Source: Amphiura filiformis (Eukaryota). Taken from it: a stretch of DNA of 64,000 bases. The notes under the pieces were generated by a model that saw only the letters and a list, made by a program, of their open reading frames with translations, was not told the DNA's origin and did no database searches. The translations under genes were made by a program, and so were the position numbers. Shown here piece after piece: positions 4,701 to 60,960 of this stretch. The stretch's first letter is position 1. Every line of letters begins with the position of its first letter. The stretch is from positions 58,010,946 to 58,074,945 of the forward strand of contig NC_092646.1 of the NCBI RefSeq assembly GCF_039555335.1. Reading direction: 5' to 3'.

Positions 4701-4759
4701 CGTCATGAAAATATTCTTACCATTGTACTCATAAACATTCAATTTTGTATACTATTATT

Positions 4760-5390
4760 TGTGACACAATCTGGTCCATGGAGGCCAAGGAGGCATTTTG
4801 GAAAATTGAGTTACTACAATTAGGCCAAAAAAAAATATTGTTGTGTTGCCCTCAACCGTCCTACCCTAAATCCTGAAAAATCAGGGTTAATTTTTTTTTT
4901 TTTTTTTTTTGGAATGATGATTTTTACAGATTTGTTCAAAAACTCAATGTTTTTCACTTAAAATAAATATTTTATTGTAAGACTAGTCTTTAATTGTTGT
5001 CTAACAGGTATCCAGAAGTCAAAATTGACAAATGTCCCCTAATTGAACAAGCATTATTTGAGGGGATTTTTAAAAATTGGAAGGTTTAAAAAAAAAAAAG
5101 GAAAAAAAAATAATAATCCGACCGTCCTACCCAAATTTCCCATTTTTCCACTTGAGGGCAACACAACAATATTTTTTTTTTTGGCCTTATCACCTTATAT
5201 ACAAACATTAGGCTATCATATACTGAAAACACCAAAGGTCTAGCATACTTGCTTCTAAAGTTATGAAATGTTGTGATGTCTATTTTCTTATGTATTGTAT
5301 TGTTTTTTTATTCCATATTTTGGCATAATCTTAATTTCAAATTTGCCGCCTTTGGCCTCCATGGACCAGATTGTGTCACATTTTATACCA
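4760..5390. mobile_element. MITE/foldback family T (TIR TGTGACACAATCTGGTCCATGGAGGCCAA), about 630 bp
   Basis: The termini at 4760-4790 and 5360-5390 are inverted complements. Internal sub-repeats are inverted, and there is a poly-T tract. Confidence 0.75.
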
Positions 5391-7036: not shown

Positions 7037-7489
7037 CACTATCAGTGATTCCTGTGCATCGTTGGGCAGGAAAAACCTCCTATGTGCTTGTGGACCCTGA
7101 ACAGGTTTAAAACAAAACTGCCAACTGATTACATTTAGAGGTTTTGCTTTAAACATGTTCAGGGGCAAGAGATTTTTCCTGCCCATTAACGACACTGTGA
7201 AAGTGTACACAAAGTTCAACTCAGTAGGAACAGCTTTAGCTTAAAGCAGAGACTAAATTAAAATACCCAAGGGAAGAATATGCCAACTGTCATTGGGTTT
7301 TTTAATAAAATGATATGAACAGTGCCGTAGATTACTTTTTTGACACCGAGTTGGTAAAATATTCATGAATCCAGCATCTTTTGGCGACAGAATAAGTTTA
7401 ATGTGTGTGAAGATTTTTTGGCCATATTGAAGCTAAAAACTGGAATAGCCAGTTTAGCGGTAAAACCAATAGCTGAGTACAAAGTACTA

Positions 7490-7798
7490 AGGACCAACCT
7501 GACTGACATCTATCCAATCCAGCGTTTCTTTGCCCTTATTCTTAGCCTGCATATCATCTTTCCATTCAGCGTCCTGTGCTTTGTATTTCTCCGCATCAGT
7601 AACCATCTGTTCTATCTCTTCTCTGGAAAGACGCCCTTTGTCGTTGGTGATAGTGATGTTATTCTTCTTGCCGGTGAGCACGTCTTGGGCAGACACATTG
7701 AGGATACCGTTGGCATCAATGTCAAAGGTCACCTCGATTTGTGGTACACCACTAGGTGCTGGAGGAATGCCAGACAGTGCAAATTTGCCCAAAAGATT
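7490..7798 (-). CDS. HSP70-family exon (C-terminal substrate-binding/lid region); the 3' boundary is uncertain
   Basis: The translation [39 protein letters not shown]...[29 protein letters not shown] matches the cytosolic HSP70/HSC70 consensus. An AG acceptor (catatgcag|AAT) lies at 7799-7801 on the minus strand. The sequence after AKN no longer resembles HSP70. Confidence 0.7.
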
Positions 7799-8693
7799 CT
7801 GCATATGGATAAAGAAGTTAAAACTTTTCATTGGTTTAATTAAAATGTGTTTTAATCCTATGGATTAGTAATGCAATGTTTTAATTAGGGACTGTTCAAT
7901 ATTTATACCAGGGGGATGGGAGTTTTGACAACAACAAAAAATTAACAAAACGATCAAATAGTAATTTGGTATGGTATCAATCGCCATAGTATTATGTCAA
8001 CTGGGTCAGTAATTCTTCCCGTTTTAGTGATTGCTCCAGTCTGTGTTCCTCCCTCACGTCCGCTCAAATTTTTTGGATTCCCCAGTGGCGCGCCACAAGT
8101 TATACTGAATTGAATGGAAGAAGATAGAATTTCAAAAGTGGGGGTGGCAGGGGGGGAACGCCCTGGGCAATTGACCAATTCAGCATGATTCTGGGCCCCC
8201 TCTTAGCGATGAAAGTCAAAATTTTGCGCATTTCAGCACAAAATCATTTGAAAGATCAATGTAAGACCAATATTCAACTTCATTATAACTAAAATTAATG
8301 AGTGATATGCCCTATTTGTGCAAATTTTCACACGTTTCGCGCACACTTGTTTCAAAAATTGGGGAGGGGCGCCATTATGCATCCTTAGCCCTGGGCGCCA
8401 AAACCCCTAGCTACACCACTGGATAGATCAGCATTCACTCACCGTGCTCATATTAGCGTGTTTCGAGAGTCTATGTAAGTTTTGTCAATTATGAAATACT
8501 CTCTTTTTTATTCAAATTGTTGCATAGTGTCGAATGAGGTATCAAAATGTGCAGAACTAAATTCTCCATTTATTGATTGCTTCATTTGGTAAATTAAGTT
8601 TTTAAACTGTCTTCAGATATTGCTTTTGTGTGCAGTATATTATCAACAAGTATACATGTACCTAGCTAACCAAATCTGTGCCTTATCACTTAC

Positions 8694-10149: not shown

Positions 10150-10930
10150 CTATTTATTTATTTATTTATTTGGCTTCATACACTGGTTACAATATCAAAT
10201 AACAAAGTTAGATAAAAGATGGATAAATATATTGCACAAAGTAAAAGTATAAAAGACATATATATATACATGTGAATAAAACGCACCACGGATCCAGCAC
10301 ATGTAGGAGAGATACCAGTGTAGAGGATTGGGATGAACAGGTGCATATCACCTCTAGGACCATCCCACCTCAAGATCAAAAAATTAATTAAGACACCTAC
10401 AAATAGCACAGCTGCATCACGGAAACCCACGTACAAATGTCATGCAGCCGGCCGAAAATTTAACTCAAAATGAGAATGCAAAAAATGAACCACATTGCTT
10501 TTAAAAACAGAAAAAGATGAAGAGGACCTAACACTAAGGGGAAGCTGATTCCAAATTGGCACAATGCGGTTAAAAAAACTGGACTTAAAAGCTTCCGTTT
10601 TGCAGAAGGGGATCCTAAGGCGCAAGGTGTCACATGTTGATCTTGTGTTGGGACGGTCTTGCCCAATCTCTGACTTGTAAAACTTGACATACTTGTAGAC
10701 ATCCAGATCGTAATTGTCAGACAAGGACTTGTAAAATAAACAAATATCAAGTTGCTCTCTGAAGCGTGAGGGTAACATACCCAGATGGCACAACCGCTCC
10801 CGATAATCCAGATCAGGATAGTGCATGATGAACTTGGTAGCTCGCCTTTGAACACCTTGAGACACTGAATATTGTGTCTGGATGTACCACTCAAAGGCAG
10901 CTACCAAATTCAAGATCACTCCTGATCAAT
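10150..10930 (-). mobile_element. 3' fragment of a non-LTR (LINE) retrotransposon ending in an (AAAT)n tail
   Basis: The 159-aa ORF at 10440-10919 ends in the conserved LINE ORF2 C-terminal tail motif ...RIPFCKTEAFKSSFFNRIVPIWNQLP. An (ATTT)5 microsatellite sits at 10150-10175. Confidence 0.6.
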
Positions 10931-11086
10931 GAATTATACAGGGCTTTGGTGATTTTTTCAGGTGCCTTAAAACCAACTGTGCGCATGATGAGACCCATTT
11001 TTTATTGCACTTTTGCACTTTTTTTTTTTTTTTTACTCACACCTATCTTCTGATATCATGTGTGTTATGTAACCCATATGAACATG

Positions 11087-14028
11087 TGTGACACGATCTG
11101 GTACATGGGAGGCATTTTTGAAAATTGAGTTATTGTAATTATTACATTATACATACAAATAGGCTATCATTTACTGAAGATTTCACACCACCAAATAGTA
11201 TATATGGTTGTGCGCCCTTGAATTTCACTTCTCAGAAAAACCCATTGATTCTGAATATAAGCATTAAAATGAGCAGAAATTTGCATAATTTTAGCCAAAT
11301 TTGGATTGGTCATGATTAGTAATATTAATTCCTGCAAGTGTACCACAGATGGGAGAGATCGAATAACTTTTAATGATTTTAAGCAGCCTTTTCTTTACAG
11401 AAACACCGGCATGGTTTTGCCTGAAAAAAGGAAATTCCCAGACATCGTGAGACTTTGAGGGCCAGTCGTAAAAAATAATGACGGTCAACCTATATTTTTC
11501 CCAGCCAGAGGGATCAGGCAAGGGCTGATTTCAACCATCATAGCTGTCGCTTAAAACTGAGTCGCTCCTGTGAAGAAAAAATGACGTTTTCTTAAGGCAA
11601 ATTTAGCACATATCTCTATGGGACTCTGATTTGGTGGTGTGAGATCTGAATGGAGCTGTGTGTGTGAGTCTCAACTTTTGATTGAGCAAGTTAGCCCTGT
11701 GCCTAATTCGTGTTTGGATTCACCGAAGAAGTGCATTGACTGAATTTATGTAATTAAAGGCTAAAATTGAAGAGAACTGCAACATTTGCTACTAATATAC
11801 CAGTGCTAAGGTGAGTTTATGCCCCAAAATGTGTGTTTGAGTGAAAGATTCCATTTCGTAGAGTGACTTAGGCCCATGCAATGTAATCATAATATTTTGT
11901 AAGCTTACATCATCAATGGCATGCAATGACTCAGTGCCAGATAGAGAAGACATTGCAGTATGGTGCTAGGGTACTGGTCGGAACTCATGAAATAGGCGCC
12001 TGGATCAGGTAAGCTTACGGTTTGTGTGTTGGTGGGGGGGGTAGGCTAATTAAGCTTATGATTCCACTACTGGTAACCCAGGTAATGTTTACAATCATGA
12101 TGGTATGCAATGACTCAGTGCCAGATGTAGAAGACATCAGTATATGGTGGCACGTGGGCTAGGGCACTGGTTGGAGCTCATAAAATGTGTCCATGGATCA
12201 GGTAAGCTTAGGGGGGGTTAGACTTAAGATTTCACTAATAGGCCATATAATTCAAAACTTATAATTCAGACATTGTGGTCATGTTCTTCTTTGCTTTTGT
12301 GTGTCTGCCTGGTTACTTGTCCCTCTTGACTGTAAATTGCTGAAAGCCTAAGTCTTGGTGAATTTTTAACATGGTAATCACAATGCTATCTTCAGTAGAT
12401 AGCAGATGTCACAGACACAATGATTCTGCTTGAAAAAAAATTTAACCAGCTTCTTGCTCAAATTATGCTAAAAATAAGTTAATTAGATTAAAATAGTCTG
12501 AAATTAAGGATAATCAGAAACATGTTGCATCATGAATGGAGCTGTGTGTGTGAGTCTCAACTTTTGATTGAGCAAGTTAGCCCTGTGCCTAATTAGTGTT
12601 TGGATTCACCAAGAAGTGCATTGACTGAATTTATGTAATTAAAGGCTAAAATTGAAGAGAACTGCAACATTTGCTACTAATATACCAGTGCTAAGGTGAG
12701 TTTATGCCCCAAAATGTGTGTTTGAGTGAAAGATTCCATTTCGTAGAGTGACTTAGGCCCATGCAATGTAATCATAATATTTTGTAAGCTTACATCATCA
12801 ATGGCATGCAATGACTCAGTGCCAGATAGAGAAGACATTGCAGTATGGTGCTAGGGTACTGGTCGGAACTCATGAAATAGGCGCCTGGATCAGGTAAGCT
12901 TACGGTTTGTGTGTTGGTGGGGGGGGTAGGCTAATTAAGCTTATGATTCCACTACTGGTAACCCAGGTAATGTTTACAATCATGATGGTATGCAATGACT
13001 CAGTGCCAGATGTAGAAGACATCAGTATATGGTGGCACGTGGGCTAGGGCACTGGTTGGAGCTCATAAAATGTGTCCATGGATCAGGTAAGCTTAGGGGG
13101 GTTAGACTTAAGATTTCACTAATAGGCCATATAATTCAAAACTTATAATTCAGACATTGTGGTCATGTTCTTCTTTGCTTTTGTGTGTCTGCCTGGTTAC
13201 TTGTCCCTCTTGACTGTAAATTGCTGAAAGCCTAAGTCTTGGTGAATTTTTAACATGGTAATCACAATGCTATCTTCAGTAGATAGCAGATGTCACAGAC
13301 ACAATGATTCTGCTTGAAAAAAAAATTTAACCAGCTTCTTGCTCAAATTATGCTAAAAATAAGTTAATTAGATTAAAATAGTCTGAAATTAAGGATAATC
13401 AGAAACATGTTGCATCATTCAGATTTCACACCACCAAATAGTATATATGGTTGTGCGCCTTGAATTTCACTTCTCAGAAAAACCCATTGATTCTGAATAT
13501 AAGCATTAAAATGAGCAGAAATTTGCATAATTTTAGCCAAATTTGGATTGGTCATGATTAGTAATATTAATTCCTGCAAGTGTACCACAGATGGGAGAGA
13601 TCGAATAACTTTTAATGATTTTAAGCAGCCTTTTCTTTACAGAAACACCGGCATGGTTTTGCCTGAAAAAAGGAAATTCCCAGACATCGAGACTTTGAGG
13701 GCCAGTCGTAAAAAATAATGACGGTCAACCTATATTTTTCCCAGCCAGAGGGATCAGGCAAGGGCTGATTTCAACCATCATAGCTGTCGCTTAAAACTGA
13801 GTCGCTCCTGTGAAGAAAAAATGACGTTTTCTTAAGGCAAATTTAGCACATATCTCTATGGGACTCTGATTTGGTGGTGTGAGATCTGAAACACCAAAGG
13901 TCTAGTTATGTTATGTTAAGTTATGAAGTTTTTTGATGTCTATTTTCTTGTTTTTTACTCCATATATTTACCTTTATCTCAGTTTCAAATTTGCCGCCTT
14001 TGGCCCCATGGACCAGATCGTGTCACAT
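11087..14028. mobile_element. Second family-T MITE carrying a 2.7-kb nested insertion
   Basis: The ends match the 4760-5390 copy. The internal sequence tactgaa|aacaccaaagg is split by the insert. Confidence 0.7.
11180..13886. mobile_element. Nested insertion with TIR GATTTCACACCACC/GGTGGTGTGAGATC and a TGAA target-site duplication; internal structure is A-B-B-A (about 470-bp A copies, about 880-bp B copies)
   Basis: The uninterrupted target is visible in the paralogue at about 5205. A recurs at 11180-11659 and 13416-13886, and B at 11660-12535 and 12536-13415. Confidence 0.65.
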
Positions 14029-14146
14029 ATTACCTGTGTGTGCTGTAATATAAATGAGTATGCACTACGCAGGTAATACAGATTTTTATCCAAATGATGT
14101 TTGACCAATAAGAATACAGAATTCATAAAGGCTGATAAATAGTTAC

Positions 14147-14258
14147 CTTTTTTTGGAACGGAAGCCATCTTTAATTCACAAGGCTCTTCAGGTTTGGATG
14201 GTGCACCAAATACTTTTCGATGAACTATACCGGGTGATGAAGGCTTGGCTAAAGGTAT
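14147..14258 (-). CDS. Module exon X (IPLAKPSSPGIVHRKVFGAPSKPEEPCELKMASVPKK)
   Basis: The acceptor is tattgcag| and the donor AAG|gtaact. The phase is 0 to 1. The exon and about 70 bp of flanking intron are conserved against the copy near 17.1 kb. Confidence 0.5.
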
Positions 14259-14761
14259 CTGCAATATTATGAAAAACAGTTAAGCATCATTAATTTGATT
14301 TTGTGCGCTTGTTTGTAATGCGCCTGTCAATTGCAATACTGGGACTTAGCCGGGACTGTTACATGTTTGTAACAGTTTCGAAAATTACGTCCCTGCTAAG
14401 GTCCCTGCTATCCCAGGGTCGGGGGCAGGGAATGCAACTGACATTATTATATGACGCTGGTGGGTAAGTATCATTAAGTGCATGATCTTGTACTAAGTCC
14501 TGTTAAGGCTGTAACTCCATTTTTTATTAAATTGAGGTAAGTTCATTCTTAGGTAAATTGAGGGTGCTATTTTCATTTCAGAAAGTCTTATAATCTCTAA
14601 ATCAGATAGCATATACCCTATATCACACACATTTTGAAATTTTTACTACTTTGTTCATCTATATCTACATCTACAAAATACTCAATAACGTTGTAATTGA
14701 CTTATTTGTTATGTTATGTGTTATGGCAGAAGAACTTCTCTTCCCATCAAAAGTTGAGTCT

Positions 14762-14875
14762 GGTTTATCAGGGACAGTCTGTGTAGCTTAGCATGATCCA
14801 ATTAAAGGTCTGGGGCTCAAGTCCCCACACTGGCAGTATGTCCTGAGTTTTTTCTCTGGCTTATCTGCCTACGTA
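14762..14875 (+). mobile_element. tRNA-derived SINE (family 2)
   Basis: It carries gtctgtgtagcttag...ggtctggggctcaagtcccc. A paralogue lies at 17590-17752. Confidence 0.6.
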
Positions 14876-14969: not shown

Positions 14970-15505
14970 AAACTGGTTAACAAAGTTCTTTGTATCTGAT
15001 CCAGAATTTTCACTTACTTGTGTACGTTTCAACAACACCTGTTGTCTTTATCAACACTTGATGGGTAGTGACTGCTACTGACAACCGGCGCTAGAAGTAG
15101 TTCCAGCGTTGATCTTGGAGTTGCCAGTTGGTTTTCCTCGAAGGGATTTTTGGGTCCCTGTTTCAGAAACTCATCAAATATGTGAGATAGTTGGTACTGT
15201 CCTTCATCTCTGTTCATGTTCTCTGTTCAAATAAGAAAGAGGAGGGGCACCACCATGAACAGAGATGAAGGACAGTACCAACTATCTCACATATTTGATG
15301 AGTTTCTGAAACAGGGATCCAAAAATCCCTTGGAGGAAAAACCAACTGGCAACTCCAAGATCAATGCTGGAACTACTTTAGCTAGCCGGTTGTCAGTAGC
15401 AGTCACTACCCATCAAGTGTTGATAAAGACAACAGGTGTTGTTGAAACGTACACAAGTAAGTGAAAATTCAGGATCAGATACAAAGAACTTTGTTAACTA
15501 GTTCA
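14970..15505. repeat. About 535-bp near-perfect palindrome (foldback)
   Basis: 14970-15230 is the reverse complement of 15235-15505. This explains the mirrored ORFs MNRDEGQYQLSHIFDEFLKQG... on both strands. Confidence 0.85.
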
Positions 15506-16460: not shown

Positions 16461-17111
16461 CTGCAACAGATAAATATGATATGATACCAATAAAGACATA
16501 ATAATAAATAACATTGGCCCAACAATTAGGCAAAAAAACAAATTGTTTGCTTGTCCATAGATTACTTTCAGAAGTTGGGTTGGTCGGTCAGTCGGGAAGA
16601 ATTTTTTTCTTGTTTTTTTTTTTTCTTATATCTATTTTTTCAAGTGTTCACTTCAAAATTTATTCAAGATATAGACTCCAAATCTGTGAAAAAAAAATAA
16701 AAATCGCAAAAAAAAATAAATAAAACAGATTTTTTAATTTTTTGGAAAATCATGGTGCGTTTTTTGGCCTCCAAAATCCTGTATTCTTAGCAGCCCTATA
16801 TTAACCGCCCATGCCCCTATAATCACCCACCCAGTGACTTTACAACAAGCAAACCGATATTAGTTTATTAACTGCCCATGCAAATCTGAATCATGGTCTG
16901 ATGCATATGACACACTGATGATAGATGAATATTTTGGGCCATTTTTACATCTTCTTGGCCTTAACAATGTAAAAAATAAGCGCCCACCCAAAATGATTTT
17001 ATTAAATGCCCTGGGCCATTAATGTAGTGTGTAGGTATATAGATTTATATCCAAGTGATGTTTGACCAATGGGATTACAGAATTCATGTCAAAAGCATGA
17101 TGAATAGTTAC

Positions 17112-17223
17112 CTTTTTTTGAAACGGAAGCCATCTTTAATTCACAAGGCTCTTGTGGCTTGGATGGTGCACCAAATACTTTTCGATGAACTATACCGGGT
17201 GATGAAGGCTTGGCTAAAGGCAT
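17112..17223 (-). CDS. Module exon X' (MPLAKPSSPGIVHRKVFGAPSKPQEPCELKMASVSKK)
   Basis: The acceptor is ttccag| and the donor AAAAAAG|gtaact. It is nearly identical to the exon at 14147-14258. The phase is 0 to 1. Confidence 0.5.
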
Positions 17224-17589
17224 CTGGAATATTAAGAATAACAGTAAGCATCATTTGATTTTGTGTGTTAGTTTGTAATGTTATGGTGTGCCTCTTCCCT
17301 TAAGCTTGTTTCTATTATATTACACGGAATTGATCTTACACGCCGGTGGACATGTGTTGTGTACTTTCTTATGAATTTGAAACTACATTTAGCACAGATT
17401 CAAGTTTAAAAAAGATACCTTTAGGCCTACTTTGCAAAAATTGGCCATTTAACATCTGTGTTACTGCTACAAAAAAGCCTTATTCTGTGTTTTAGTTCAC
17501 AAGCATGCTTACAATTGTTGTATATGAGTGCCCCCCCAAGTGTTGTTTGTAATGTACTGTCTTCTCTTACCGCTCACATCTTTAAGTAC

Positions 17590-17752
17590 CAGATTTAAGC
17601 TCTGTTTATCAGGGACAGTCTGTGTAGCTTAGTGGTTAGGGTATCAGATGCATGATCCAAAGGTCTGGGGCTCAAATCCCTGCACAGGCAGTAACATCCG
17701 GAGGTTTTTCTCTGGTTTATCTCCGTGATTTATCTGCCTGTGCATGTTATAT
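17590..17752 (+). mobile_element. tRNA-derived SINE (family 2), fuller copy
   Basis: The tRNA-like head is gtagcttagtggttagggtatcagatgcatgatccaaaggtctggggctcaaatccctgcacaggcag. Confidence 0.65.
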
Positions 17753-20881: not shown

Positions 20882-21584
20882 TCAGTTGGTTTTCCAAAAC
20901 CTTTTTCTACTTAATCGAGGCTGTGTAACTCCAAACAGACTTGCTCCACTTGGTTCTTCTATGGTCTTACGCTGTGCAGCTCCAAAAAGACTTGGTTCAG
21001 TTGGTTTTCCAAAACCTTTTTCTACTAATCGAGGCTGTGTAACTCCAAACAGACTTGCTCCACTTGGTTCTTCTATGGTCTTACGCTGTGCAGCTCCAAA
21101 CAGACTTGCTCCAGTTGGTTCTTCTGCAGTTGGTTTTCCAAGACCTCCAGCATACTCAGCATCAAGTCGACTGCCCATTGCAGATCCAAACAAATCCCCA
21201 GCATGCGGTGGCAACGATAGAGGTTGAGCTACAGTATCAGGAACATATGTTGGCAACGACATTGTCAACATAGCTGAAGCTAGGATATCACCTGTTGGGA
21301 AGCTAAATCCTGGAGGGGGTGGTGGAGGAGATGCACCACCAAGTTGCGGAGGCGGTGAGGGTGGGAGGCCAAATCCTGGAGGTGGATGAGGTGGAGGTGC
21401 ACCATCAACTGACAGAGTCTTTCTCCTGAGGTCTGGTGGTGGTGGAGGGCCAGCTCCTTGAGATGGGGGTGGTGGGGGTGGGATTCTGTGTTCAATGGGG
21501 CCTTTCAGGGTCAGAATACCTCTTTTACTCTTGGCCTCATGACCAACGTAGCAATCTTTCTGCCCCATGCCGACCATCACTCCC
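20882..21584 (-). CDS. Exon E6: actin-like continuation ([32 protein letters not shown]), then polyproline, then SLFG/FG repeats; terminated by an apparent frameshift
   Basis: The acceptor ctgcag|GGA resumes the actin sequence exactly after RHQ. A 232-aa ORF follows, with roughly 120-bp tandem coding repeats at 20817-21130 whose last copy carries a 1-bp insertion. Confidence 0.55.
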
Positions 21585-23396: not shown

Positions 23397-25464
<2,068 letters not shown>

Positions 25465-25670
25465 CTGGTGTCTTGGTCGACCTACTATACTAGGGAAAAC
25501 TACCCTAGGTGCATCGTCACCAGCAAACCCTGCCTTGGTCGTATCAAGCCCAAGGTCAATAACCACCACTGCTACATCTTCATCGTCAGGTGATAGCTCT
25601 TCCATTACTGTTATAGGTGGTGGCGGTGGTGGTGCAGGAATGTCAGGTGGTATTCCAGAGGATGCCAAAT
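25465..25670 (-). CDS. Exon E5: proline-rich linker plus actin-like N-terminal segment ([69 protein letters not shown])
   Basis: [24 protein letters not shown] is the actin N-terminal signature. The donor CAG|gtaagt falls exactly at the conserved actin codon-41 intron position. The acceptor is tcttcatctag|. Confidence 0.6.
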
Positions 25671-29235: not shown

Positions 29236-32200
29236 GCATTCTCTAAATTCAGTAAATTTTCATCATCAACCGTGTAATTGAATGGGATTATTTTGAAATT
29301 TTAAAACGCTTGAAATATCACAAACAAATAGGCCTATGTTGATAAATAATATAAATACAAGCTAAAACCGTTGGGGTTCGATAATGAACCCCACAAAACT
29401 AAACGACTATATTGAAAATGCCATACGGCCGGGCGGTTTCACAAGTTGCCGGCTCGATCATGTCATCCGCCGCCTGAATTGCCCCTTCATGTCAGTAATC
29501 ACAGCAGCTGAAAGGACTATCCCATTATGCTTTGCGGTGTCATACAAACTGTACACAAAATCATCCCTCTCTTCAACTTTCAATCACTCGCTTAAATCTT
29601 TGTTTGAAAAGATATGACACTATCCATAGCTCTCAATATTTAAGCAGCTCTTACTTATGTTTTGTATGCATTTGCTATGGACCAAGCAGATCTACTGCAA
29701 TGCATGATGGGATACTCCCTTCAGCTGCTGTGGTCAGTAACCATGGACGAAAGAGTTAACAGACCGCATACAACCAGTCAAAGTTCCTGTGTATTGTATG
29801 CTGTGAGTTCTCGCATATTCATGAGGGCCGATTGTTCAATCGTGCCTTGTCTAACAATCACGCCAGCATTGCGTGCCTTCGCGTATACGCGATATAGCGA
29901 CAGAGCATTGCGTGCTTTAGCAATTACGCGTTATACCGTAAAAATAATCCAAAAGTGCGTAGCAGTCTCGCCTGTCGCATTTTATTGAACAATCGGCCCT
30001 CATTATCGGGTGATGCTGAGACTTTGACTGATTGTACGCAGTAATATCTCTTTTGTCCATTAAGTGAAGAGCTCTAGGGGCAGAGCCTAGGGCAGTGGCT
30101 AGAACAAGATATACAAAAAAAACCACAGCTATTGCTCAATTTAAGGGCTGGGGTATGAAGCGTTTGGACAGTATTTATTTTGGGACATCAGAGCATCAGA
30201 CATATCGCATTGCACTCTGAACACGAAGAATGTCATTCTGATATCAAATAATTTTGATTTTTTGAAATTCCCAATTTAATACACATTTTATGGCAAATCA
30301 TTAAAAATTGATATTTTTGATATTTAACAGTACTTGAAGTAAACTTTATAAATCTGATGATTTATACTTAAAAAGTGTATGTAGGTGGGATGAAAAGCCG
30401 ACGATCAATTGAAAATTTTGACCTTTCAGTATTGAAGATATGGATTTTTTTCCCAAAACACAAAAAAAAATTAGGTCTTTTTGGGAAAAAAATCCATATC
30501 TTCAATATGAAAGGTCAAAATTTTCAATTGACCATCCGCTTTTCCTTCCTGCTACATACACTTTAAGAATATATCATTAGATTTATATAATTTACTTCGA
30601 GGACTGTTATATATCAAAAATTTGAAAAATATCAAATTTTTATAATTTGTCATAAAATTTGTATTATATTGTGATTTTCAAAAATGAAAATTATTTGATA
30701 TCAGAAAGACATGCTTCAGATTCGAATGCAATTCGATAGGTCTGAGGTGCTCTCATGTCCCACAAAAAATACTGTCGAAACCCAATAAACGCTCATTTTA
30801 GATCCCTTAAGGGGGTACTACACCCATTGATTTTTTTTTGCATTTTTTTGCATTTTGTGAAGAAATTACAAAAAAAAACTGGACAAAGTGGTATGCAAAA
30901 TGAAGGGGCAAATCTTCTCGTTTTATTGGTGGCATCGGTATCAATGTAGCTTACATGCTTTTGAAGATAGAAGCCAAAAGGAGGTACATCACTGATGATT
31001 TAAATTCACTTCATTTTGGAAAGCTTACTATCAACGAATTTCGTTAAAATTTTGGATATGTGTTGCTAACACATTAGGGAAATAATGTTGATATGTAAAA
31101 TGGGAATAAGTGGTCCCTGATTTCTTTTATGACTTCATGAACTTGGTGCTCCACAACTATCAAAAAAACGAACCGGTTAAAATGCTTCTATTTTCAATGT
31201 CGAGCTATATTTTGTATTTTGAACTTGCAACACTATGTCACTGAAACTTAATTAAGCCATAGGTAACAGGTTACCACAACCACACTACAGCAATGTTGAA
31301 AAAGATTGTATTTTTTGTCACCTATACCACCATATTAGGTAGTTTTCCGTAAGCTTCATTTTTGTGATTTTGGTAACTATTTTATATTTATTTGCCCAAT
31401 CCAACTCAACTAGGCAATCTAAATTGTACTCACCATTTACATCCCAAGGTATTTTAGCATATCCACCTCACACATTTCCATTATATATCCAGTAACAGAC
31501 AAAATATCAAAATTGATGCCTCATTATGACATGTATGATATCACAGACTATCACATGTATTCAAAATTGATGCCTGAATTTGACCAGAACCAATTGACCT
31601 ATAACCTGACCTTTGATGACCTTATAGCCTTTTTTAATCTCTTTTCCTAACAACATATTATAGAAGATACATACATGGTGTAGTGTTAATTGTCTATGTG
31701 GAAGAGATTATTTAGGCCTATTTAATTTATTCAGTGTTATAATCAGTGAGTATATTTCTATAGATAGTATAACAAAGGATTTAATGTATTCTATTCATGT
31801 ATTCTACTTGGACATGTTCAATAGAATATATTATGGTTTGTTATGAAACATACATCTCAGTTACCAGGATACAGTAAACAACAAAATATATAGGGCTAAA
31901 ATGATTTTCTAAAATGGTCTAATACCACTTTGTATGTAGAGATATTTTATAAATTCAGGACATGAGATGATGAACATATAAATATACTTTATAAATTTGC
32001 AATAAAAAAAAGAAGATGGGTACTGATGAAAATCAGGGTATTAAATCGCCTTAAGCAATTATTTTTGATAAAATTTGTGAAATATGCCTTTTTCATCTGA
32101 ATTTTTACACATTATTCCATTTGCTCACTATATCATTTTCAATTTCCTTTGTGAGTAGACCTGAGATGTCATCACTGGACGTCACCTCGATACGCAAATC

Positions 32201-33936: not shown

Positions 33937-34329
33937 CTGAAAAAGGAAGGGAACAAAATTTAGGTTTTCCCCAATGAGGTAGAATCAAAGAGTACCAACT
34001 CTGCCACGTTTGCGTGTCGCTCATGGAGGCGGATTACTTCGCTATTCGCCCAGCAAACGATCCAAAGTGGGTGCTTGTTCACGTTCTGTATGTAACATGT
34101 TGTTCAAAAACACGATCCAAGCACTGTGTAGACAAACCTTAGTAACAAAAGATGCAAATTTGTTGTTCAATTTCGGCCCTCTCTCGATGAATGCAGGAGG
34201 TACGTTATCTACCCTCCATGATGAGCACCAAACCAAGATGGTGGACTTACATGTAGCATTACATATGGTACAATTTTGAGTCAGTAAACTTTAGTATCTT
34301 TGGTTTGTCCACATGTATAGGTCTATGTA

Positions 34330-37060
34330 TTTATACTTACTTCCAGGGTCTGTGATTGTCCAGGAGGACTCTTGGTTGGTTCCCATCCCATATAGGTATG
34401 TGTATCAATACTTACTTCTAGGGTCTGTGGTTGTCCAGGAGGACTCTTGGTTGGTTCCCATCCCATGTGGGTATGTATATTATCAATACTTACTTCTAGG
34501 GTCTGTGGTTGTCCAGGAGGACTCTTGGTTGGTTCCCATCCCATGTGGGTATGTATATTATCAATACTTACTTCTAGGGTCTGTGGTTGTCCAGAAGGAC
34601 TCTTGGTTGGTTCCCATCCCATATAGGTATGTGTATCAATACTTACTTCTAGGGTCTGTGGTTGTCCAGGAGGACTCTTCATTGGTTCCCATCCCATGTG
34701 GGTATGTATATTATCAATACTTACTTCCAGGGTCTGTGGCTGTCCAGGAGGACTCTTCGTTGGTTCCCATCCCATGTGGGTATGTATATTATCAATACTT
34801 ACTTCTAGGGTCTGTGGTGGTCCAGGAGGACTCTTCATTGGTTCCCATCCCATGTGGGTATGTATATTATCAATACTTACTTCTAGGGTCTGTGGTTGTC
34901 CAGGAGGACTCTTGGTTGGTTCCCATCCCATGTAGGTGTGTGTATCAATACTTACTTCTAGGGTCAGTGGTTGTCCAGGAGGACTCTTGGTTGGTTCCCA
35001 TCCCATGTAGGTATGTGTATCAATACTTACTTCTAGGGTCTGTGGTTGTCCAGGAGGACTCTTGGTTGGTTCCCATCCCATGTAGGTATGTGTATCAATA
35101 CTTACTTCTAGGGTCTGTGGTTGTCCAGGAGGACTCTTGGTTGGTTCCCATCCCATGTGGGTATGTATATTATCAATACTTACTTCTAGGGTCTGTGGTT
35201 GTCCAGGAGGACTCTTGGTTGGTTCCCATCCCATATAGGTATGTGTATCAATACTTACTTCTAGGGTCTGTGGTTGTCCAGGAGGACTCTTGGTTGGTTC
35301 CCATCCCATGTAGGTGTGTGTATCAATACTTACTTCTAGGGTCCGTGGTTGTCCAGGAGGACTCTTGGTTGGTTCCCATCCCATGTAGGTGTGTGTATCA
35401 ATACTTACTTCTAGGGTCTGTGGTTGTCCAGGAGGACTCTTCGTTGGTTCCCATCCCATGTGGGTATGTATATTATCAATACTTACTTCTAGGGTCTGTG
35501 GTTGTCCAGGAGGACTCTTCGTTGGTTCCCATCCCATATAGGTATGTGTATCAATACTTACTTCTAGGGTCTGTGGTTGTCCAGGAGGACTCTTGGTTGG
35601 TTCCCATCCCATGTAGGTATGTGTATCAATACTTACTTCTAGGGTCTGTGGTTGTCCAGGAGGACTCTTGGTTGGTTCCCATCCCATATAGGTATGTGTA
35701 TCAATACTTACTTCTAGGGTCTGTGGTTGTCCAGGAGGACTCTTCGTTGGTTCCCATCCCATGTGGGTATATGTATTTAGAGAATAAGCGATAGGAATTT
35801 TTATTTTGCCTATCCTCTACCGTGTGATAGGCGACAGGCAGGTCCAATATTTTGAGTAGTGGATGCCGCGCAGCCGGTATCCACTACGATAAAAATATTG
35901 GACCTGCCTGTCGCTCATCATAGGTAGAGGATAGGCAAAATAAAAATTCCTATCGCTTATTCTCATTCAGTTAAATATTATTTTAATAACTGTAAACAAT
36001 TTTTTTAAAGTAAAAACTAAGTTACCGTCATAAAAACTCCCCTCATTATAAAATGAACGAAACTGGTTTACAACTTCACGTATTCTCATTTTATGCAGTA
36101 CTGCTAGCGCGCTTTTGCGTATTCCGCACTAGTCTACGCATCCAGCGCGATACATACGCCGCATCTCTACACGCGTGTTACGCATTATCCAGACGCATGA
36201 TGACGTGGGGTCGCTCTCACGGCCTGATAGACGGCACCGAAATCATGCGATTGTCTAATCAGAAATGTGTCTACGAACTAGACCACTCCCACTGACTAAG
36301 AAATTATCAATACTTACTTCTAGGGTCAGTGGTTGTCCAGGAGGACTCTTGGTTGGTTCCCATCCCATATAGGTATGTGTATCAATACTTACTTCTAGGG
36401 TCTGTGGTTGTCCAGGAGGACTCTTGGTTGGTTCCCATCCCATATAGGTATGTGTATCAATACTTACTTCTAGGGTCTGTGGTTGTCCAGGAGGACTCTT
36501 CGTTGGTTCCCATCCCATATAGGTATGTGTATCAATACTTACTTCTAGGGTCTGTGGTTGTCCAGGAGGACTCTTCGTTGGTTCCCATCCCATGTAGGTA
36601 TGTGTATCAATACTTACTTCTAGGGTCTGTGGTTGTCCAGGAGGACTCTTCGTTGGTTCCCATCCCATGTAGGAGTGTGTATCAATACTTACTTCTAGGG
36701 TCTGTGGTTGTCCAGGAGGACTCTTCGTTGGTTCCCATCCCATGTAGGGGTGTGTATCAATACTTACTTCTAGGGTCTGTGGTTGTCCAGGAGGACTCTT
36801 CGTTGGTTCCCATCCCATGTAGGAGTGTGTATCAATACTTACTTCTAGGGTCTGTGGTTGTCCAGGAGGACTCTTGGTTGGTTCCCATCCCATGTGGGTA
36901 TGTATATTATCAATACTTACTTCTAGGGTATGTGGTTGTCCAGGAGGACTCTTTGTTGGTTCCCATCCCATATAGGTATGTGCATCAATACTTACTTCTA
37001 GGGTCTGTGGTTGTCCAGGAGGACTCTTGGTTGGTTCCCATCCCATATAAGTCAATGTAT
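34330..37060. repeat. Satellite B: 75/78-bp unit x about 30, in two blocks (34330-35785 and 36300-37060)
   Basis: The unit is tacttacttctagggtctgtggttgtccaggaggactcttggttggttcccatcccat(a/g)t(a/g)ggtatgt(gt)atcaa. ORFs are open on both strands (493 aa on the plus strand, 479 aa and 320 aa on the minus strand). Confidence 0.9.
35780..35964. repeat. 185-bp near-perfect palindrome interrupting satellite B
   Basis: agagaataagcgataggaatttttattttgcctatcctctac ... gtagaggataggcaaaataaaaattcctatcgcttattctc; centre at about 35872. Confidence 0.85.
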
Positions 37061-37237
37061 CAATCTCTTCTTTTCTCAGCAGCTCTTCTATGTCTACTGC
37101 TTTCATCTCCTTTTTGTCTTCGTCCTTCATAAATAACAATAAGAGTATGATAATAATGAAAACTATTATTATAGACAGTTTGTATTCTTTGGAGCATTTG
37201 CTTGATGATGAAAGCACTCATATGGCAACATGCAATG

Positions 37238-37477: not shown

Positions 37478-40400
37478 ACACCAAGTTTTCTTATGGCCAG
37501 TTAGTGAGTGGCCTATAGCAGAGTTACTACAGAGCTACTCCAAGCTGGAGTAGCTCTGCAGTATCTTCAGAACCACTGCATAGCTATTCCACTATAGAGT
37601 ACCGAAGTGATGACGTCACAAGAAACTTTTTTTGCATTTCAGCGTTTTGAATACCATGTATCAGTGGAGCATGATGAAAAATATCCACAGTCCAAATTTG
37701 GTGGGAATCGGATCATGAGGGCCCGAGATATGGTCGCATGAATACCTAATTAGTGTAAATTGGCCTGGTTCCAAACAGTTATGAGACCAGGCCAATTTAG
37801 AGGGCGCAACACTAAATCACTCCGCATTTTATGTAACAACAAAATTCGGCTAATATAGTCCATAGTGAATATGAGATTGCAGCGACCATATCTACCGACA
37901 TGTTCACTTTAAATCACTCAATATCGGCTCATATGAATTCGACAAGTGTCTTTAATGATAACATGCAGATAAAAACTGAACAATTGATCTCAAAAGCAAT
38001 TCTCTGTGGCGGATTAAGAGAAAACCCGATTTTGAAATGTGAGTGGTGAGTTTAGCATATTTTTAGCTCTTTTTTTTTGCACCGAAAATTAAGAAAAAAG
38101 TCAATGGTCATCGATATATGCCGACAAAAGTTTTGGAATCTAGAGAAACAGAGCTTTAATTTGATACCAAATTTATTTTGCCAAGTATTGCAGGGACGCC
38201 AGAAATGGCGCTTGAAGTAGGCGAAATCACACGTTATCCTATGGGACGCTGAATTAGTGCTGCTCCCCCTTGTAACGGCCGTCATTATGAACGCGTTCCT
38301 TTTACATTCTTGGCAAGCAAAATAAGAGACGCGCTTCACAAAATGTGTTCTATTTCCATCATGATGATAAACAAGTATTACAAAAAGTCATCCTCATGAA
38401 AAATTATTGGAAAAAACACTTTATTGGCCGAGTAGGCGCCTTCAAAGTCAAGAAATGCATCCAAAAATCCTCAAAAAGGTTCATAAATGGATTTTAAGGT
38501 TAATAGACATTATTAATCTGCATGAAGCCGTTTTGCTGAATATTCAGTAGGCCTACTCAAAAAGATCGCAATTGTTACTACTGGAAGGGGGGTATTTATA
38601 CTTGAGACTCAGTAATAAATGATTTCCAAAAAAAATGGCAACACTGATAATCTAGAAAAGAAATTAATCTTGGTTCAAAGACGTGCTCAAATTGTCGTCT
38701 GTCACTAATTTTGTGAGTTTTGTATAAACTTTCGCATATTGGAGGAAAAGTCGAAATATTCGATTTTCGGCATTTCGGCACTGATCTTTAAAACATCATT
38801 TCTCTTGAACGGAATGTCATGAGAGCCATGAAATCTTCGGTGTTGAGCTTCAAATTTTCTCTAGTTTACTTAATGAGTAATAAATGTGGATTTTGAAAAC
38901 TTTTAACACCTTATAAGAGGCGCAACACTAAATCACTCCGCATTTTATGTAACAACGAAATTCGCTAATATAGTCCATAGTGAATATGAGATTGCAGCGA
39001 CCATATCTACCGACATGTTCACTTTAAATCACTCAATATCGGCTCATATGAATTCGACAAGTGTCTTTAATGATAACATGCAGATAAAAACTGAACAATT
39101 GATCTCAAAAGCAATTCTCTGTGGCGGATTAAGAGAAAACCCGATTTTGAAATGTGAGTGGTGAGTTTAGCATATTTTTAGCTCTTTTTTTTTGCACCGC
39201 AAATTAGCGAAAAAAGTCAATGGTCATCGATATATGCCGACAAAAGTTTTGGAATCTAGAGAAACAGAGCTTTAATTTGATACCAAATTTATTTTGCCAA
39301 GTATTGCAGGGACGCCAGAAATGGCGCTTGAAGTAGGCGAAATCACACGTTATCCTATGGGGCGCTGAATTAGTGCTGCGCCCCTTGTAACGGCCGTCAT
39401 TATGAACGCGTTCCTTTTACATTCTTCGCAAGCAAAATAAGAGACGCGCTTCACAAAATGTGTTCTATTTCCATCATGATGATAAACAAATATTACAAAA
39501 AGTCATCCTCATGAAAAATTATTGGAAAAAACACTTTATTGGCCGAGTAGGCGCCTTCAAAGTCAAGAAATGCGCCCAAAATCCTCAAAAGGTTCATAAA
39601 TGGATTTTAAGGTTAATAGACATTGTTAATCTGCATGAAGCCGTTTTGCTGAATATTCGGTAGGCCTACGCAAAAAGTCCGTAATTGTTACTACTGGAAG
39701 GGGGGCGTATTTATACTTGAGACTCAGTAATAAATGATTTCCAAAAAAATGGCAACACTGATAATCTAGAAAAGAAATTAATCTTGGTTCAAAGGCGTTG
39801 CTCAAATTGTCGTCTGTCACTAATTTTGTGAGTTTTGTATAAACTTTGATATTGGAGGAAAAGTCGAAATAGTCGATTTTCGGCATTTCGGCACTGATCT
39901 TTAAAACATCATTTCTCTTGAACGGAATGTCGCAGAGACATGAAATCTTCGGTGTTGAGCTTCAAATTTTCTCTAGTTTACTTAATGAGTAATAAATGTG
40001 GATTTTGAAAACTTTTAACACCTTATAAGAGGGCGCAACACTAAATCACTCCGCATTTTATGTAACAACGAAATTGCTAATATAGTCCATAGTGAATATG
40101 AGATTGCAGCGACCATATCTACCGACATGTTCACTTTAAATCACTCAATATCGGCTCATATGAATTCGACAAGTGTCTTTAATGATAACATGCAGATAAA
40201 AACTGAACAATTGATCTCAAAAGCAATTCTCTGTGGCGGATTAAGAGAAAACCCGATTTTGAAATGTGAGTGGTGAGTTTAGTATATTTTTAGCTCTTTT
40301 TTTTTTTGCACCGCAAATTAGCGAAAAAAAGTCAATGGTCATCGATATATGCCGACAAAAGTTTTGGAATCTAGAGAAACAGAGCTTTAATTTGATACCA

Positions 40401-41866
40401 AATTTATTTTGCCAAGTATTGCGGGGACGCCAGAAATGGCGCTTGAAGTAGGCCGAAATCACACGTTATCCTATAGGGCGCTGAATTAGTGCTGCGCCCC
40501 CTTGTAACGGCCGTCATTATGAACGCGTTCCTTTTACATTCTTCGCGCAAAATAAGAGACGCGCGCTTCACAAAATGTGTTCTATTTCCATCATGATGAT
40601 AAACAAATATTACAAAAAGTCATCCTCATGAAAAATTATTGGAAAAAACACTTTATTGGCCGAGTAGGCGCCTTCAAAGTCAAGAAATGCGTCCAAAAAT
40701 CCTCAAAAAGGTTCATAAATGGATTTTAAGGTTAATAGACATTATTAATCTGCATGAAGCCGTTTTGCTGAATATTCAGTAGGCCTACTCAAAATATCGC
40801 AATTGTTACTACTGGAACGGGGGGGTGGGGTTATTTATACTTGAGACTCAGTAATAAATGATTTCCAAAAAAAATGGCAACACTGATAATCTAGAAAAGA
40901 AATTAATCTTGGTTCAAAGCGTGCTCAAATTGTCGTCTGTCACTAATTTTGTGAGTTTTGTATAAGCTTTCGCATATTGGAGGAAAAGTCGACATATTCG
41001 ATTTTCGGCATTTCGGCACTGATCTTTAAAACATCATTTCTCTTGAACGGAATGTCGCAGAGCCATGAAATCTTCGGTGTTGAGCTTCAAATTTTCTCTA
41101 GTTTACTTAATGAGTAATAAATGTGGATTTTGAAAACTTTTAACACCTTATAAGAGGGCGCAACACTAAATCACTCCGCATTTTATGTAACAACGAAATT
41201 CGGCTAATATAGTCCATAGTGAATATGAGATTGCAGCGACCATATCTACCGACATGTTCACTTTAAATCACTCAATATCGGCTCATATGAATTGACAAGT
41301 GTCTTTAATGATAACATGCAGATAAAAACTGAACAATTGATCTCAAAAGCAATTCTCTGTGGCGGATTAAGAGAAAACCCGATTTTGAAATGTGAGTGGT
41401 GAGTTTAGCATATTTTTAGCTCTTTTTTTTTTCCTCAAATTAGCGAAAAAAAGTCAATGGTCATCGATATATGCCGACAAAAGTTTTGGAATCTAGAGAA
41501 ACAGAGCTTTAATTTGATACCAAATTTATTTTGCCAAGTATTGCAGGGACGCCAGAAATGGCGCTTGAAGTAGGCCGAAATCACACGTTATCCTATGGGG
41601 CGCTGAATTAGTGCTGCGCCCCCTTTACACTGATTTCAATGGGGCTAATTAGGTATTCATGCAGCCAGATCTCGGGCCCTCATGATCCGATTCCCACCAA
41701 ATTTGGACTGTGGATGTTTTTCATCCTGTTCTCATGAAAATGCTGAAATGCAAAAAAAAAAATTTTATGACGTCACACTTCGGTACTCTATGCAGTAGCT
41801 CATAGTGGAATAGCTGTAACTCTGCTATGGGCCACCCACTAACTGGCCATAAGAATATAGTTGTGT
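37478..41866. mobile_element. Large element with about 330-bp terminal inverted repeats enclosing 3.4 copies of a 1.1-kb tandem repeat
   Basis: 37478-37800 is the reverse complement of 41620-41866 (ggccagttagtgagtggcc...gtaactctgctatgg). Internal units start at about 37800, 38920, 40022 and 41155. Confidence 0.75.
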
Positions 41867-59526: not shown

Positions 59527-60960
59527 GTACACAATGTGTTACACTTGGACCACAATCTGGTCATGCACCTTTAACTCCAAACTCAGAATACGAATGTTTG
59601 GGTGATTGGCCTCAATGTGAGGTAGAATACACAATGTGTTACACTTGGATCACAATCTGGTCATGCACCTTTAAGGGTGATTGGCCTCAATGTGAGGTAG
59701 AATACACAATGTGTTACACTTGGACCACAATCTGGTCATGCACCTTTAACTCCAAACTCAGAATAAGAATGTTTGGGTGATTGGCCTCAATGTGAGGTAG
59801 AATACACAATGTGTTACACTTGGACCACAATCTGGTCATGCACCTTTAACTCCAAACTCAGAATAAGAATGTTTGGGTGATTGGCCTCAATGTGAGGTAG
59901 AATACACAATGTGTTACACTTGGATCACAATCTGGTCATGCACCTTTAAGGGTGATTGGCCTCAATGTGAGGTAGAATACACAATGTGTTACACTTGGAC
60001 CACAATCTGGTCATGCACCTTTAACTCCAAACTCAGAATAAGAATGTTTGGGTGATTGGCCTCAATGTGAGGTAGAATACACAATGTGTTACACTTGGAC
60101 CACAATCTGGTCATGCACCTTTAACTCCAAACTCAGAATAAGAATGTTTGGGTGATTGGCCTCAATGTGAGGTAGAATACACAATGTGTTACACTTGGAT
60201 CACAATCTGGTCATGCACCTTTAAGGGTGATTGGCCTCAATGTGAGGTAGAATACACAATGTGTTACACTTGGACCACAATCTGGTCATGCACCTTTAAC
60301 TCCAAACTCAGAATATGAATGTTTGGGTGATTGGCCTCAATGTGAGGTAGAATACACAATGTGTTACACTTGGACCACAATCTGGCCATGCACCTTTAAC
60401 TCCAAACTCAGAATATGAATGTTTGGGTGATTGGCCTCAATGTGAGGTAGAATACACAATGTGTTACACTTGGACCACAATCTGGTCATGCACCTTTAAC
60501 TCCAAACTCAGAATAAGAATGTTTGGGTGATTGGCCTCAATGTGAGGTAGAATACACAATGTGTTACACTTGGATCACAATCTGGTCATGCACCTTTAAG
60601 GGTGATTGGCCTCAATGTGAGGTAGAATACACAATGTGTTACACTTGGACCACAATCTGGTCATGCACCTTTAACTCCAAACTCAGAATATGAATGTTTG
60701 GGTGATTGGCCTCAATGTGAGGTAGAATACACAATGTGTTACACTTGGATCACAATCTGGTCATGCACCTTTAACTCCAAACTCAGAATATGAATGTTTG
60801 GGTGATTGGCCTCAATGTGAGGTAGAATACACAATGTGTTACACTTGGACCACAATCTGGTCATGCACCTTTAACTCCAAACTCAGAATATGAATGTTTG
60901 GGTGATTGGCCTCAATGTGAGGTAGAATAGAATAGAATAGAATAGAATAGAATAGAATAG
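59527..60960. repeat. Satellite A, block 2, ending in (GAATA)7
   Basis: Same unit; the microsatellite lies at 60925-60960. Confidence 0.9.

Follow-up and report, generated by a model that had tools for sequence, protein, structure and literature searches.

The 64,000-nt stretch of DNA analysed here (the window) carries at 11087-14028 a miniature inverted-repeat transposable element (MITE), called T, that is split by a 2.7-kb insert. On balance, this insert is probably a single young, non-autonomous, composite copy of a cut-and-paste DNA transposon family, in which a module termed A stands as a direct repeat at both ends. Two copies of a second module, B, lie between the A modules, so that the whole is laid out as A1-TGAA-B1-TGAA-B2-TTCA-A2. 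While the nesting is ordinary, the insert is probably a new structural variant of the Mutator superfamily and a natural record of alternative or precise excision. The window itself is eukaryote-like, with 38.6% G+C, and MITEs, foldbacks and tandem arrays are crowded throughout.

The insert is nested within MITE T

The host element T has the ends TGTGACACGATCTGG...CCAGATCGTGTCACA, and its two arms are ~77% identical to the paralogue at 4760-5380. The features of the locus are listed below, where labels beginning with L denote contigs that carry related copies.

11087-11174, + strand: left arm of MITE T (terminal inverted repeat TGTGACACGATCTGG...), 77% identity to the paralogue at 4757-4822
11175-11178, no strand: target-site duplication copy 1, TGAA, from the junction read; the paralogue has TGAA once, at 5224-5227
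11179-11646, + strand: A1, 468-bp terminal module, with inverted repeats at 11179-11196 (GATTTCACACCACCAAAT) and 11629-11646 and a conserved block at 11464-11592
11647-11650, no strand: spacer between A1 and B1, TGAA; same joint in L001, L002, L015, L016, L018 and L020, TGCA in L017
11651-12532, + strand: B1, 882-bp body remnant, with a deletion joint near 12366-12372 and hairpin GCTATCTTCAGTAGATAGC at 12385-12403
12533-12536, no strand: joint between B1 and B2, TGAA, without A; L003 has the same joint with TTCA, and L001, L002 and L018 have it filled as TTCA-A-TGAA
12537-13417, + strand: B2, 881-bp second body remnant, with the hairpin at 13269-13287 and a deletion joint near 13250-13256
13418-13421, no strand: spacer between B2 and A2, TTCA (reverse complement of TGAA), extending the left inverted repeat; same joint in L001, L002, L018 and L020
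13422-13886, + strand: A2, 465-bp terminal module in the orientation of A1, with inverted repeats at 13422-13439 and 13869-13886 and a conserved block at 13704-13832
13887-13890, no strand: target-site duplication copy 2, TGAA, from the junction read
13891-14028, + strand: right arm of MITE T, 77.6% identity to 5227-5385
4760-5380, + strand: T paralogue with the intact target tacTGAAaacacc (5221-5234); holds another nested MITE at 4822-5190
63684-63703, + strand: GATTTTACATCACCAAATAC after TGTA, possibly one end of a related element; 2-3 mismatches in 20 versus the left repeat of A

When the window is compared with itself, the T arms match at ~77% (11084-11141 with 4757-4822, and 13889-14032 with 5227-5385), and the insert that separates them is flanked on its outer sides by TGAA and TGAA. 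At the left outer junction, tacTGAA is followed by GATTTCAC..., the start of A1, while the right outer junction reads ...GAGATC-TGAA-acacc. Within the insert, the junctions are ...GAGATC-TGAA-TGGAGC... for A1-B1, ...GCATCA-TGAA-TGGAGC... for B1-B2, and ...GCATCA-TTCA-GATTTC... for B2-A2. Joining the T arms by a single TGAA produces an alignment that runs straight across the paralogue site tacTGAAaacacc (5221-5234), with ~41 of 46 columns identical and one additional A in the paralogue's A-run, a homopolymer, as the sole local difference. The original prediction, made from the sequence alone, had proposed that T is interrupted by a 2.7-kb insert with TGAA on both sides and that the paralogue keeps the uninterrupted site; the repeat matches and junction reads bear out the former, and the arm alignment the latter. 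Its A-B-B-A order of direct repeats also holds, with A1 and A2 99.4% and B1 and B2 99.5% identical. It was right that TGAA is found again at the B-B junction, while the TTCA of the B2-A2 junction, the reverse complement, had been overlooked.

Because A ends in ...ATC, the duplication could also be read as 5 bp long (CTGAA) in place of the 4-bp TGAA. The outer flanks of this single insertion have only TGAA, or at most CTGAA, in common, and an 8-11-bp direct repeat is absent. The insertion into T is a recent event, because the copies of A and of B are near-identical and 97-99% identical to metagenome copies, while the T paralogues are ~23% diverged. A transposon nested within a transposon, complete with duplication and empty site, is routine, and here it chiefly points to recent movement of the family.

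The T paralogue contains a nested MITE of its own at 4822-5190, with the terminal inverted repeat GGCCAAAAAAAAATATTGTTGTGTTGCCCTC and TTA on both flanks (Tourist/PIF-like), and each T copy thereby keeps the uninterrupted site of the other copy's insertion. If T is read as GTGACAC...GTGTCAC, copy 1 is flanked by ATTT/ATTT (4757-4760 and 5380-5383) and copy 2 by ATGT/ATAT (11084-11087 and 14027-14030), so that this MITE family may also make 4-bp duplications.

Modules A and B

The two A modules match at 99.4% over 473 bp (11178-11650 versus 13421-13890) and differ in three indel columns only. The terminal inverted repeat of the original prediction is present, at 18 bp and not the 14 bp first given; its two arms, GATTTCACACCACCAAAT and GATCTCACACCACCAAAT, match at 17 of 18 positions, no longer arm was found, and the inner TTCA and TGAA spacers lengthen it to 22 bp. 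Allowing up to two mismatches, the 14-mer has five sites in the window where 0.52 are expected, a count reached by none of 100 shuffles; four of these are ends of A and the fifth is the diverged end at 63684. The interior next to 63684-63703 is unlike A and the window stops before any position at which a partner repeat would lie, and this site may be the end of a related element.

A has no coding capacity. Its right ~130-200 bp are >90% conserved across families (L017 and L020 compared) versus ~70% for the rest of the unit, and this block holds TGACG-type and TATA-like motifs, from which we infer a putative regulatory or transposase-binding role. No Rfam family matches the conserved block, and a permissive Rfam scan of the insert gave only two chance-level matches (E 0.93). 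GTDB genomes and viral contigs scanned with the most conserved block of A returned nothing, and a scan of JGI metagenome contigs for the A inverted repeat gave 11 loci, none of them A-like.

The B copies are 99.55% identical over 888 bp (11647-12533 versus 12533-13418), with one substitution and three single-base indels between them. B is the internally deleted remnant of a gene-bearing body: B1 joins ~720 bp from the 5′ end to ~165 bp from the 3′ end of a longer body, and window positions 11647-12366 and 12370-12533 match the two ends of longer related units. B starts with TGG and a (TG)n run, and it contains an older internal duplication of ~125 bp (11905-12020 and 12089-12213). In its 3′ part lies a perfect 19-bp hairpin, GCTATCTTCAGTAGATAGC (7-bp stem, 5-nt loop), positioned between the 5′ side of the transposase described below and the A module. 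The hairpin is exact in both window copies and in L001, L003, L018, L020 (at 1139), L021 and L022 (at 8284), although the surrounding sequence of the families has diverged by at least 25%. Exact look-ups of four open reading frames (ORFs) inside A and B gave no record; a 53-aa ORF inside B has an exact record on marine metagenome contigs and near-identical variants on further contigs.

A and B form one unit in related contigs

The adjacency of A to B, and of B to A, recurs in eight independent contigs from marine metagenomes and assemblies, including relatives with only 72-87% identity. Given in the orientation of the window, L001, L002 and L018 read B(end)-gcatca, TTCA, a complete A, TGAA and tggagc-B(start) at 97-99% identity, while L015 and L016 carry A-TGAA-B(start), also at 97-99%. 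L001 consists of a single A+B unit whose one break is at the poly-G tract of B. In the diverged L017 (A 87%, B 70-80% identical) the joint is A'-TGCA-B'(start), and L020 and L021 (~72-76% identical) hold TTCA-A''-TGAA inside a unit of ~2.26 kb. A apart from B was never found in the window or in the contigs reached. In essence, A and B are two modules of one unit whose linkage is conserved, and the recurrence of the spacers at the inner A ends of relatives argues that TTCA and TGAA are inherited parts of this unit and not fresh target sites.

This conservation bears directly on the role of A. The original prediction had pictured a small element repeatedly integrating into, or recombining with, itself, an idea that does not survive the finding that A-B joints and spacers are conserved in diverged relatives. 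In its fuller form, A would be an independent MITE-like element that prefers TGAA, inserting repeatedly or recombining with itself, and B would be local or captured DNA, with TGAA used again as a target where the B copies meet. Such an A would account for the clean 18-bp inverted repeats and lack of coding capacity, for the TGAA/TGAA that flanks A1 taken alone, and for the 4-mers of TNNA form that adjoin all A ends. We nevertheless hold it to be very unlikely and largely refuted, since the A-B and B-A joints are conserved together with their spacers down to ~72% identity, A2 lacks directly repeated flanks, with TTCA on one side and TGAA on the other, and B lacks ends of its own with which to use a target and is instead the remnant of the gene-bearing body of A's own family. 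The favoured composite element, in which A is a terminal module, takes these joints as part of its structure.

The ~2.26-kb unit of L020 and L021 occurs as circular permutations in two different JGI metagenomes, with exact terminal overlaps of 99 bp and 90 bp. These contigs assemble as closed cycles and lend some weight to the main rival, another route to the same structure, in which a solo A entered T first, creating the TGAA duplication, and an A-B-B circle or tandem donor later recombined with the resident A, either by Campbell-type integration of the circle or by ectopic gene conversion. This route would yield the exact arrangement, including inner TGAA and TTCA identical to those of the free unit, the single unit of L001 with its one break at the poly-G tract is in keeping with it, and the cutting of two inward-facing ends can free an intervening segment as a circle (PMC3744419). 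However, it takes two events where one is enough, short-read cycles also come from collapsed terminal repeats or tandem arrays, so that circles lack direct support, and no solo A is present in the window or in the JGI inverted-repeat scan. We consider this route rather improbable and prefer the arrival of the composite copy as a single block.

L015 (PJEL010959996.1) belongs to the Globobulimina (foraminifer) draft assembly GCA_003358065.1 and carries A-TGAA-B at 98.9% identity to the window, L002 is the Tara metagenome scaffold TARA_SAMEA2189669, and other copies are found in further marine metagenomes. Because both a foraminifer assembly and a Tara scaffold carry the unit, these copies are probably contamination or prey DNA from a common marine animal, and the element would make a useful marker of contamination or prey DNA in foraminifer draft genomes and ocean metagenomes.

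The joint between the B copies points to precise loss of A

Three states of the joint between B(end) and B(start) are found, one filled and two without A. The filled joint, gcatca-TTCA-A-TGAA-tggagc, is seen in L001, L002 and L018 and, as halves, at the A1-B1 and B2-A2 junctions of the window. The joint without A reads gcatca-TGAA-tggagc between B1 and B2 of the window and gcatca-TTCA-tggagc in L003, a contig that is 95% identical and has a different internal deletion. As static sequences, each of these equals the filled joint minus A and minus one flanking 4-mer, which is the form left by precise excision. Because the filled state is common to the diverged L017 and L020 lineages, the joints without A are, by parsimony, probably the derived state, and the difference in their 4-mers and internal deletions suggests that the two arose independently. 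The TGAA between B1 and B2 is thus most plausibly the trace of a middle A that was lost precisely. The flanks TTCA and TGAA agree only at T..A, so that either 4-mer can survive, and both are seen. Predominantly precise excision, removing the element and one copy of the target-site duplication, has been shown for the Mutator-like elements (MULEs) Muta1 and Os3378, and in yeast >90% of Muta1 excisions take this form (PMC5499845). In maize, the termini of two nearby Ac/Ds elements can be paired and the intervening segment circularised, while excision of an element at a duplication joint leaves a footprint (PMC3744419).

Simpler origins of the doubled B were considered and rejected. A plain duplication by replication slippage is at odds with both breakpoints lying 1-4 bp from A ends and with the recurrence of the joint in L003, and a tandem dimer of one unit would be head-to-tail, which A-B-B-A is not. 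The duplication of B, or the absence of the middle A, could also be an assembly artefact, the true locus being A-B-A or a longer (A-B)n array. Most differences between A1 and A2 and between B1 and B2 are indeed single-base indels, several in homopolymers, like the errors of a long-read consensus, and the window is full of tandem arrays. Yet a substitution and indels outside homopolymers also separate B1 from B2, and each A departs from the population consensus in changes of its own. In addition, the B-B joint is clean, and a joint without A occurs independently in L003; together, these points make an artefact highly unlikely.

Relatives carry a Mutator-type transposase and a His-Me nuclease

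Two convergent genes sit in relatives at the place where B in the window has its gap. The first, in L017 and L019, encodes a His-Me finger protein of ~135 aa, a fragment of which matches PF05551 and HNH_3; full-length P0006 reaches 40 bits with PF05551, against a cut-off of 27. Among solved structures, I-PpoI comes closest, with a weak match (E 0.05) in which the SH.CH...C.NP.HL...N core is aligned. The second gene, on the opposite strand, is represented there by the C-terminus of a larger protein. In the 15.6-kb contig behind L022, three consecutive ORF fragments, which include this C-terminus, tile 32-357 of the 357 positions of PF20700, 'Mutator-like transposase', and full-length relatives of 658-711 aa (P0017, P0023, P0024 and P0043) match PF20700 at E 1e-44 to 1e-53. 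The transposase family comprises 545 clusters at 50% identity. The order in L022 is transposase, hairpin motif, A-like module (...GGGACTCTGAATAAGTGGTGTACAACC) and then unrelated DNA. This order gives a transposase-bearing element an A-type module at its outer boundary, in the relative position that A2 has in the window. Scans of viral contigs with the transposase, and of GTDB genomes with the transposase alignment, returned nothing.

The genes of the relatives weigh heavily on a further reading, the one to which we give the least credence, in which the insert is a retroelement of the long terminal repeat (LTR) type, resembling a terminal-repeat retrotransposon in miniature (TRIM) or a large retrotransposon derivative (LARD). 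Here, A would be the LTR, B the internal region and TGAA the duplication made by integrase, with the order LTR-internal-internal-LTR produced by recombination or by reverse transcription gone astray. Terminal repeats of ~470 bp in direct orientation, a 4-bp duplication, a B that begins with TGG and a promoter-like conserved block in A all suit an LTR element, and cycles with a collapsed LTR would account for the 'circular' contigs. In contrast, A ends in GATTTC...GAGATC and not TG...CA, and its inverted repeats of 18-22 bp are long for an LTR. No primer-binding site is found, the best match to the only tRNA-like gene of the window being 9/18, and B opens with the (TG)n run; nor does a polypurine tract adjoin A2, the most purine-rich 12-mer upstream having 9/12 purines and not abutting A2. 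Finally, the relatives encode a DDE transposase of the Mutator type and no reverse transcriptase or integrase, as the composite DNA transposon would have it.

Three other classes were rejected. Helitrons have 5′-TC...CTRR-3′ ends with a hairpin at the 3′ side, and they insert between A and T with no duplication, while the insert has GAT...ATC ends with inverted repeats and the target tactgaa-acacc has no AT dinucleotide at the insertion point. For a Crypton or DIRS element, which would use a tyrosine recombinase, no recombinase was found and the relatives have a DDE transposase instead. With a staggered cut, a homing origin of A through the His-Me nuclease would leave direct flanks, and the observed flanks are inverted.

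A proposed origin for the composite copy

We infer mobilisation in trans through the outer repeats, the route by which B was doubled and the order of these events, as follows. In autonomous relatives, the body encodes the small I-PpoI-like His-Me nuclease and the Mutator-type DDE transposase, both of which are lost from the window copy, where the body remnant is present twice. An unequal exchange between direct A repeats would first produce the dimer A-B-A-B-A, from which the middle A would be excised precisely together with one flanking 4-mer, leaving TGAA. In an equivalent route, the A ends that face B (right in A1, left in A2) would be cut on sister chromatids and the B flanks joined, giving A-B-B-A directly. 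A transposase supplied in trans would then pair the two outer inverted repeats, left in A1 and right in A2, such that the whole A-B-B-A block is cut out and pasted into the old MITE T at TGAA, with those 4 bp duplicated.

Several observations weigh against this explanation. The duplication is 4 bp, possibly 5 bp, versus the 8-11 bp of MULEs, and it comes from one insertion; moreover, because TGAA or TGCA follows every right end of A, the TGAA on the right could have been carried in by the element, and nothing would then have been duplicated. Only in the window are A modules directly visible at the two ends of one element, and the 'circular' contigs fit an A-B-A element with a collapsed A, tandem arrays and true circles equally well. 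The inner TTCA/TGAA flanks are inverted and not direct, which leaves the first origin of the architecture unexplained. There is no remnant of the transposase or of the His-Me nuclease anywhere in the window, and the link to the transposase passes through short metagenome contigs, from the window to L017 (80-87% identity), to L019 (94% overlap with L017) and on to the transposase C-terminus, backed otherwise only by the motif and module order of L022. Lastly, the window contains no solo A and no second dispersed copy, the retrieved contigs contain no solo A, and scans of JGI metagenomes, GTDB genomes and IMG/VR yielded no A.

We also entertain, as a tentative and rather doubtful proposal, that a marine animal here first reveals a hitherto undescribed branch of the Mutator superfamily, for which four features could be distinctive. 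These would be an LTR-like build in a DDE element, with a promoter-like module of ~470 bp that bears 18-22-bp inverted repeats and stands in direct orientation at both ends; 4-bp duplications of the TNNA type in place of 8-11 bp; a gene for an I-PpoI-like His-Cys-box nuclease that converges with the transposase gene; and spread also in the form of tandem or circular A+B units. A piggyBac-like model, where the element takes 4-nt overhangs of its flanks along, fits all junctions and is kept only within this proposal, as we know of no precedent for it among Mutator-type enzymes. If true, the alternative TTCA and TGAA joints without A would record seamless excision, with the 4-nt flanks paired and repaired to either sequence. 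Should these features hold genome-wide, a Mutator lineage with 4-bp duplications would loosen the feature by which the superfamily is defined and annotated, and end modules that are direct repeats with two usable ends each would offer the transposase four termini. A-B-B-A and the two joints without A would then resemble traces that alternative or precise excision has left in nature; to our knowledge, the documented cases of such events come mostly from maize and Drosophila stocks that were engineered or followed genetically. The pairing of a His-Me (I-PpoI-like) nuclease with a DDE transposase would be an unexplored combination.

Neighbourhood of the insert

Immediately upstream of T lies an ORF with the tail of the reverse transcriptase of a long interspersed nuclear element (10440-10919, - strand), preceded by an ORF resembling the C-terminal exon of HSP70 (7487-7831, - strand). 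To the right of T, a segmental duplicate pairs 14071-14866 with 17033-17722, with 88% identity between 14071-14320 and 17033-17280 and 74% between 14763-14866 and 17604-17722. The single match in the window at Rfam gathering thresholds is tRNA-like (17618-17690, 35 bits) and falls inside the second duplicate copy, while ARAGORN reports no tRNA; this region may be a tRNA-derived short interspersed nuclear element. Further along, an ORF at 20882-21580 (- strand) has an actin-like N-terminus followed by proline-rich repeats.

Large, near-perfect palindromic elements of the foldback type lie at 14971-15503, 23417-24037 and 30162-30781, and the copies at 23397-24066 and 30141-30811 are 94.7% identical. 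Tandem arrays comprise a ~170-bp satellite (24062-25538), a ~1.1-kb unit repeated ~3.4 times at ~97% identity (37799-41625) and three blocks of one ~100-bp repeat family (44154-46622, 59528-60929 and 61551-62383), the last two of which interrupt or abut MYND and VWA-like exons near 61216-62753. A 75-bp minisatellite at 34313-37217 has long periodic ORFs on both strands with a 25-aa unit (e.g. MGWEPTKSPPGQPQTLEVSIDTHTY).

Comparison with known systems

The transposase of its relatives places the family, with its cut-and-paste-like behaviour, in the Mutator superfamily, while the length of its duplication falls short of what is used to define that group. MULEs make target-site duplications of 8-11 bp (PMC6446971, PMC5499845), and their terminal inverted repeats are typically >100 bp, with a reported range of 14-500 bp and some families having none (PMC6446971). 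The relatives of the window element share the PF20700 transposase with MULEs such as MuDR, Muta1 and Spectre. Their second ORF, convergent with the transposase, recalls MuDR; the conserved promoter-like sequence of the A modules recalls the terminal inverted repeats of Mu; and the apparent loss of A with one 4-mer resembles the mostly precise excision of Muta1. The inverted repeat of 18 bp, or 22 bp with the spacers, is inside the published range and far below the typical length. The differences are that the duplication is 4 bp (or 5 bp) and not 8-11 bp, that the end modules are direct and not inverted, each with its own pair of short inverted repeats, and that the second gene of the relatives encodes an I-PpoI-like His-Me nuclease, the window copy itself being gene-less.

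The nearest described relatives of the four-terminus feature are plant MULEs with multiple terminal inverted repeats (Ferguson & Jiang 2012). These are non-autonomous, have four terminal sequences and show a target-site duplication only at the outermost pair, and the aberrant use of one external and one internal terminus has been proposed for them (PMC3310237). Their arrangement differs in that each end has its extra repeats in tandem and these measure 100 bp or more, whereas each end of the window element is a complete mini-element (left repeat, interior and right repeat) and the two ends are direct repeats of one another.

LTR retrotransposons and TRIMs likewise have direct terminal repeats of a few hundred bp and duplications of 4-6 bp, and they form tandem LTR-internal-LTR-internal-LTR derivatives that collapse to cycles in short-read assemblies. 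Unlike them, the window element has no TG...CA ends, primer-binding site or polypurine tract, and its relatives have a DDE transposase instead of reverse transcriptase and integrase.

In its overall plan, the insert corresponds to a composite element, with A1 and A2 both complete and 99.4% identical and the duplication present only at the outermost ends. The diverged end at 63684 and the joints without A, which imply excision, hint that A may also be mobile by itself. A alone does not correspond to a MITE, as A2 and the metagenome copies of A are flanked by TTCA...TGAA, which is inverted, and A always adjoins B. As in composite transposons and macrotransposons (direct insertion sequence copies of the bacterial Tn9 type; maize Ac/Ds, PMC3744419, PMC4270019), two end-bearing modules bracket a segment that moves with them. 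Alternative transposition of Ac/Ds offers further parallels: the ends of different copies are paired, cutting at inward ends joins the intervening flanks, and tandem duplications arise with an element between the copies that leaves a short footprint when it excises. In the Tn9-type and Ac/Ds systems, the transposase comes from the flanking modules or from an unlinked element, with the DNA between the modules as a passenger, whereas in the family described here the body between the A modules carries the family's own genes, in an arrangement that is no single occurrence but is conserved across diverged lineages.

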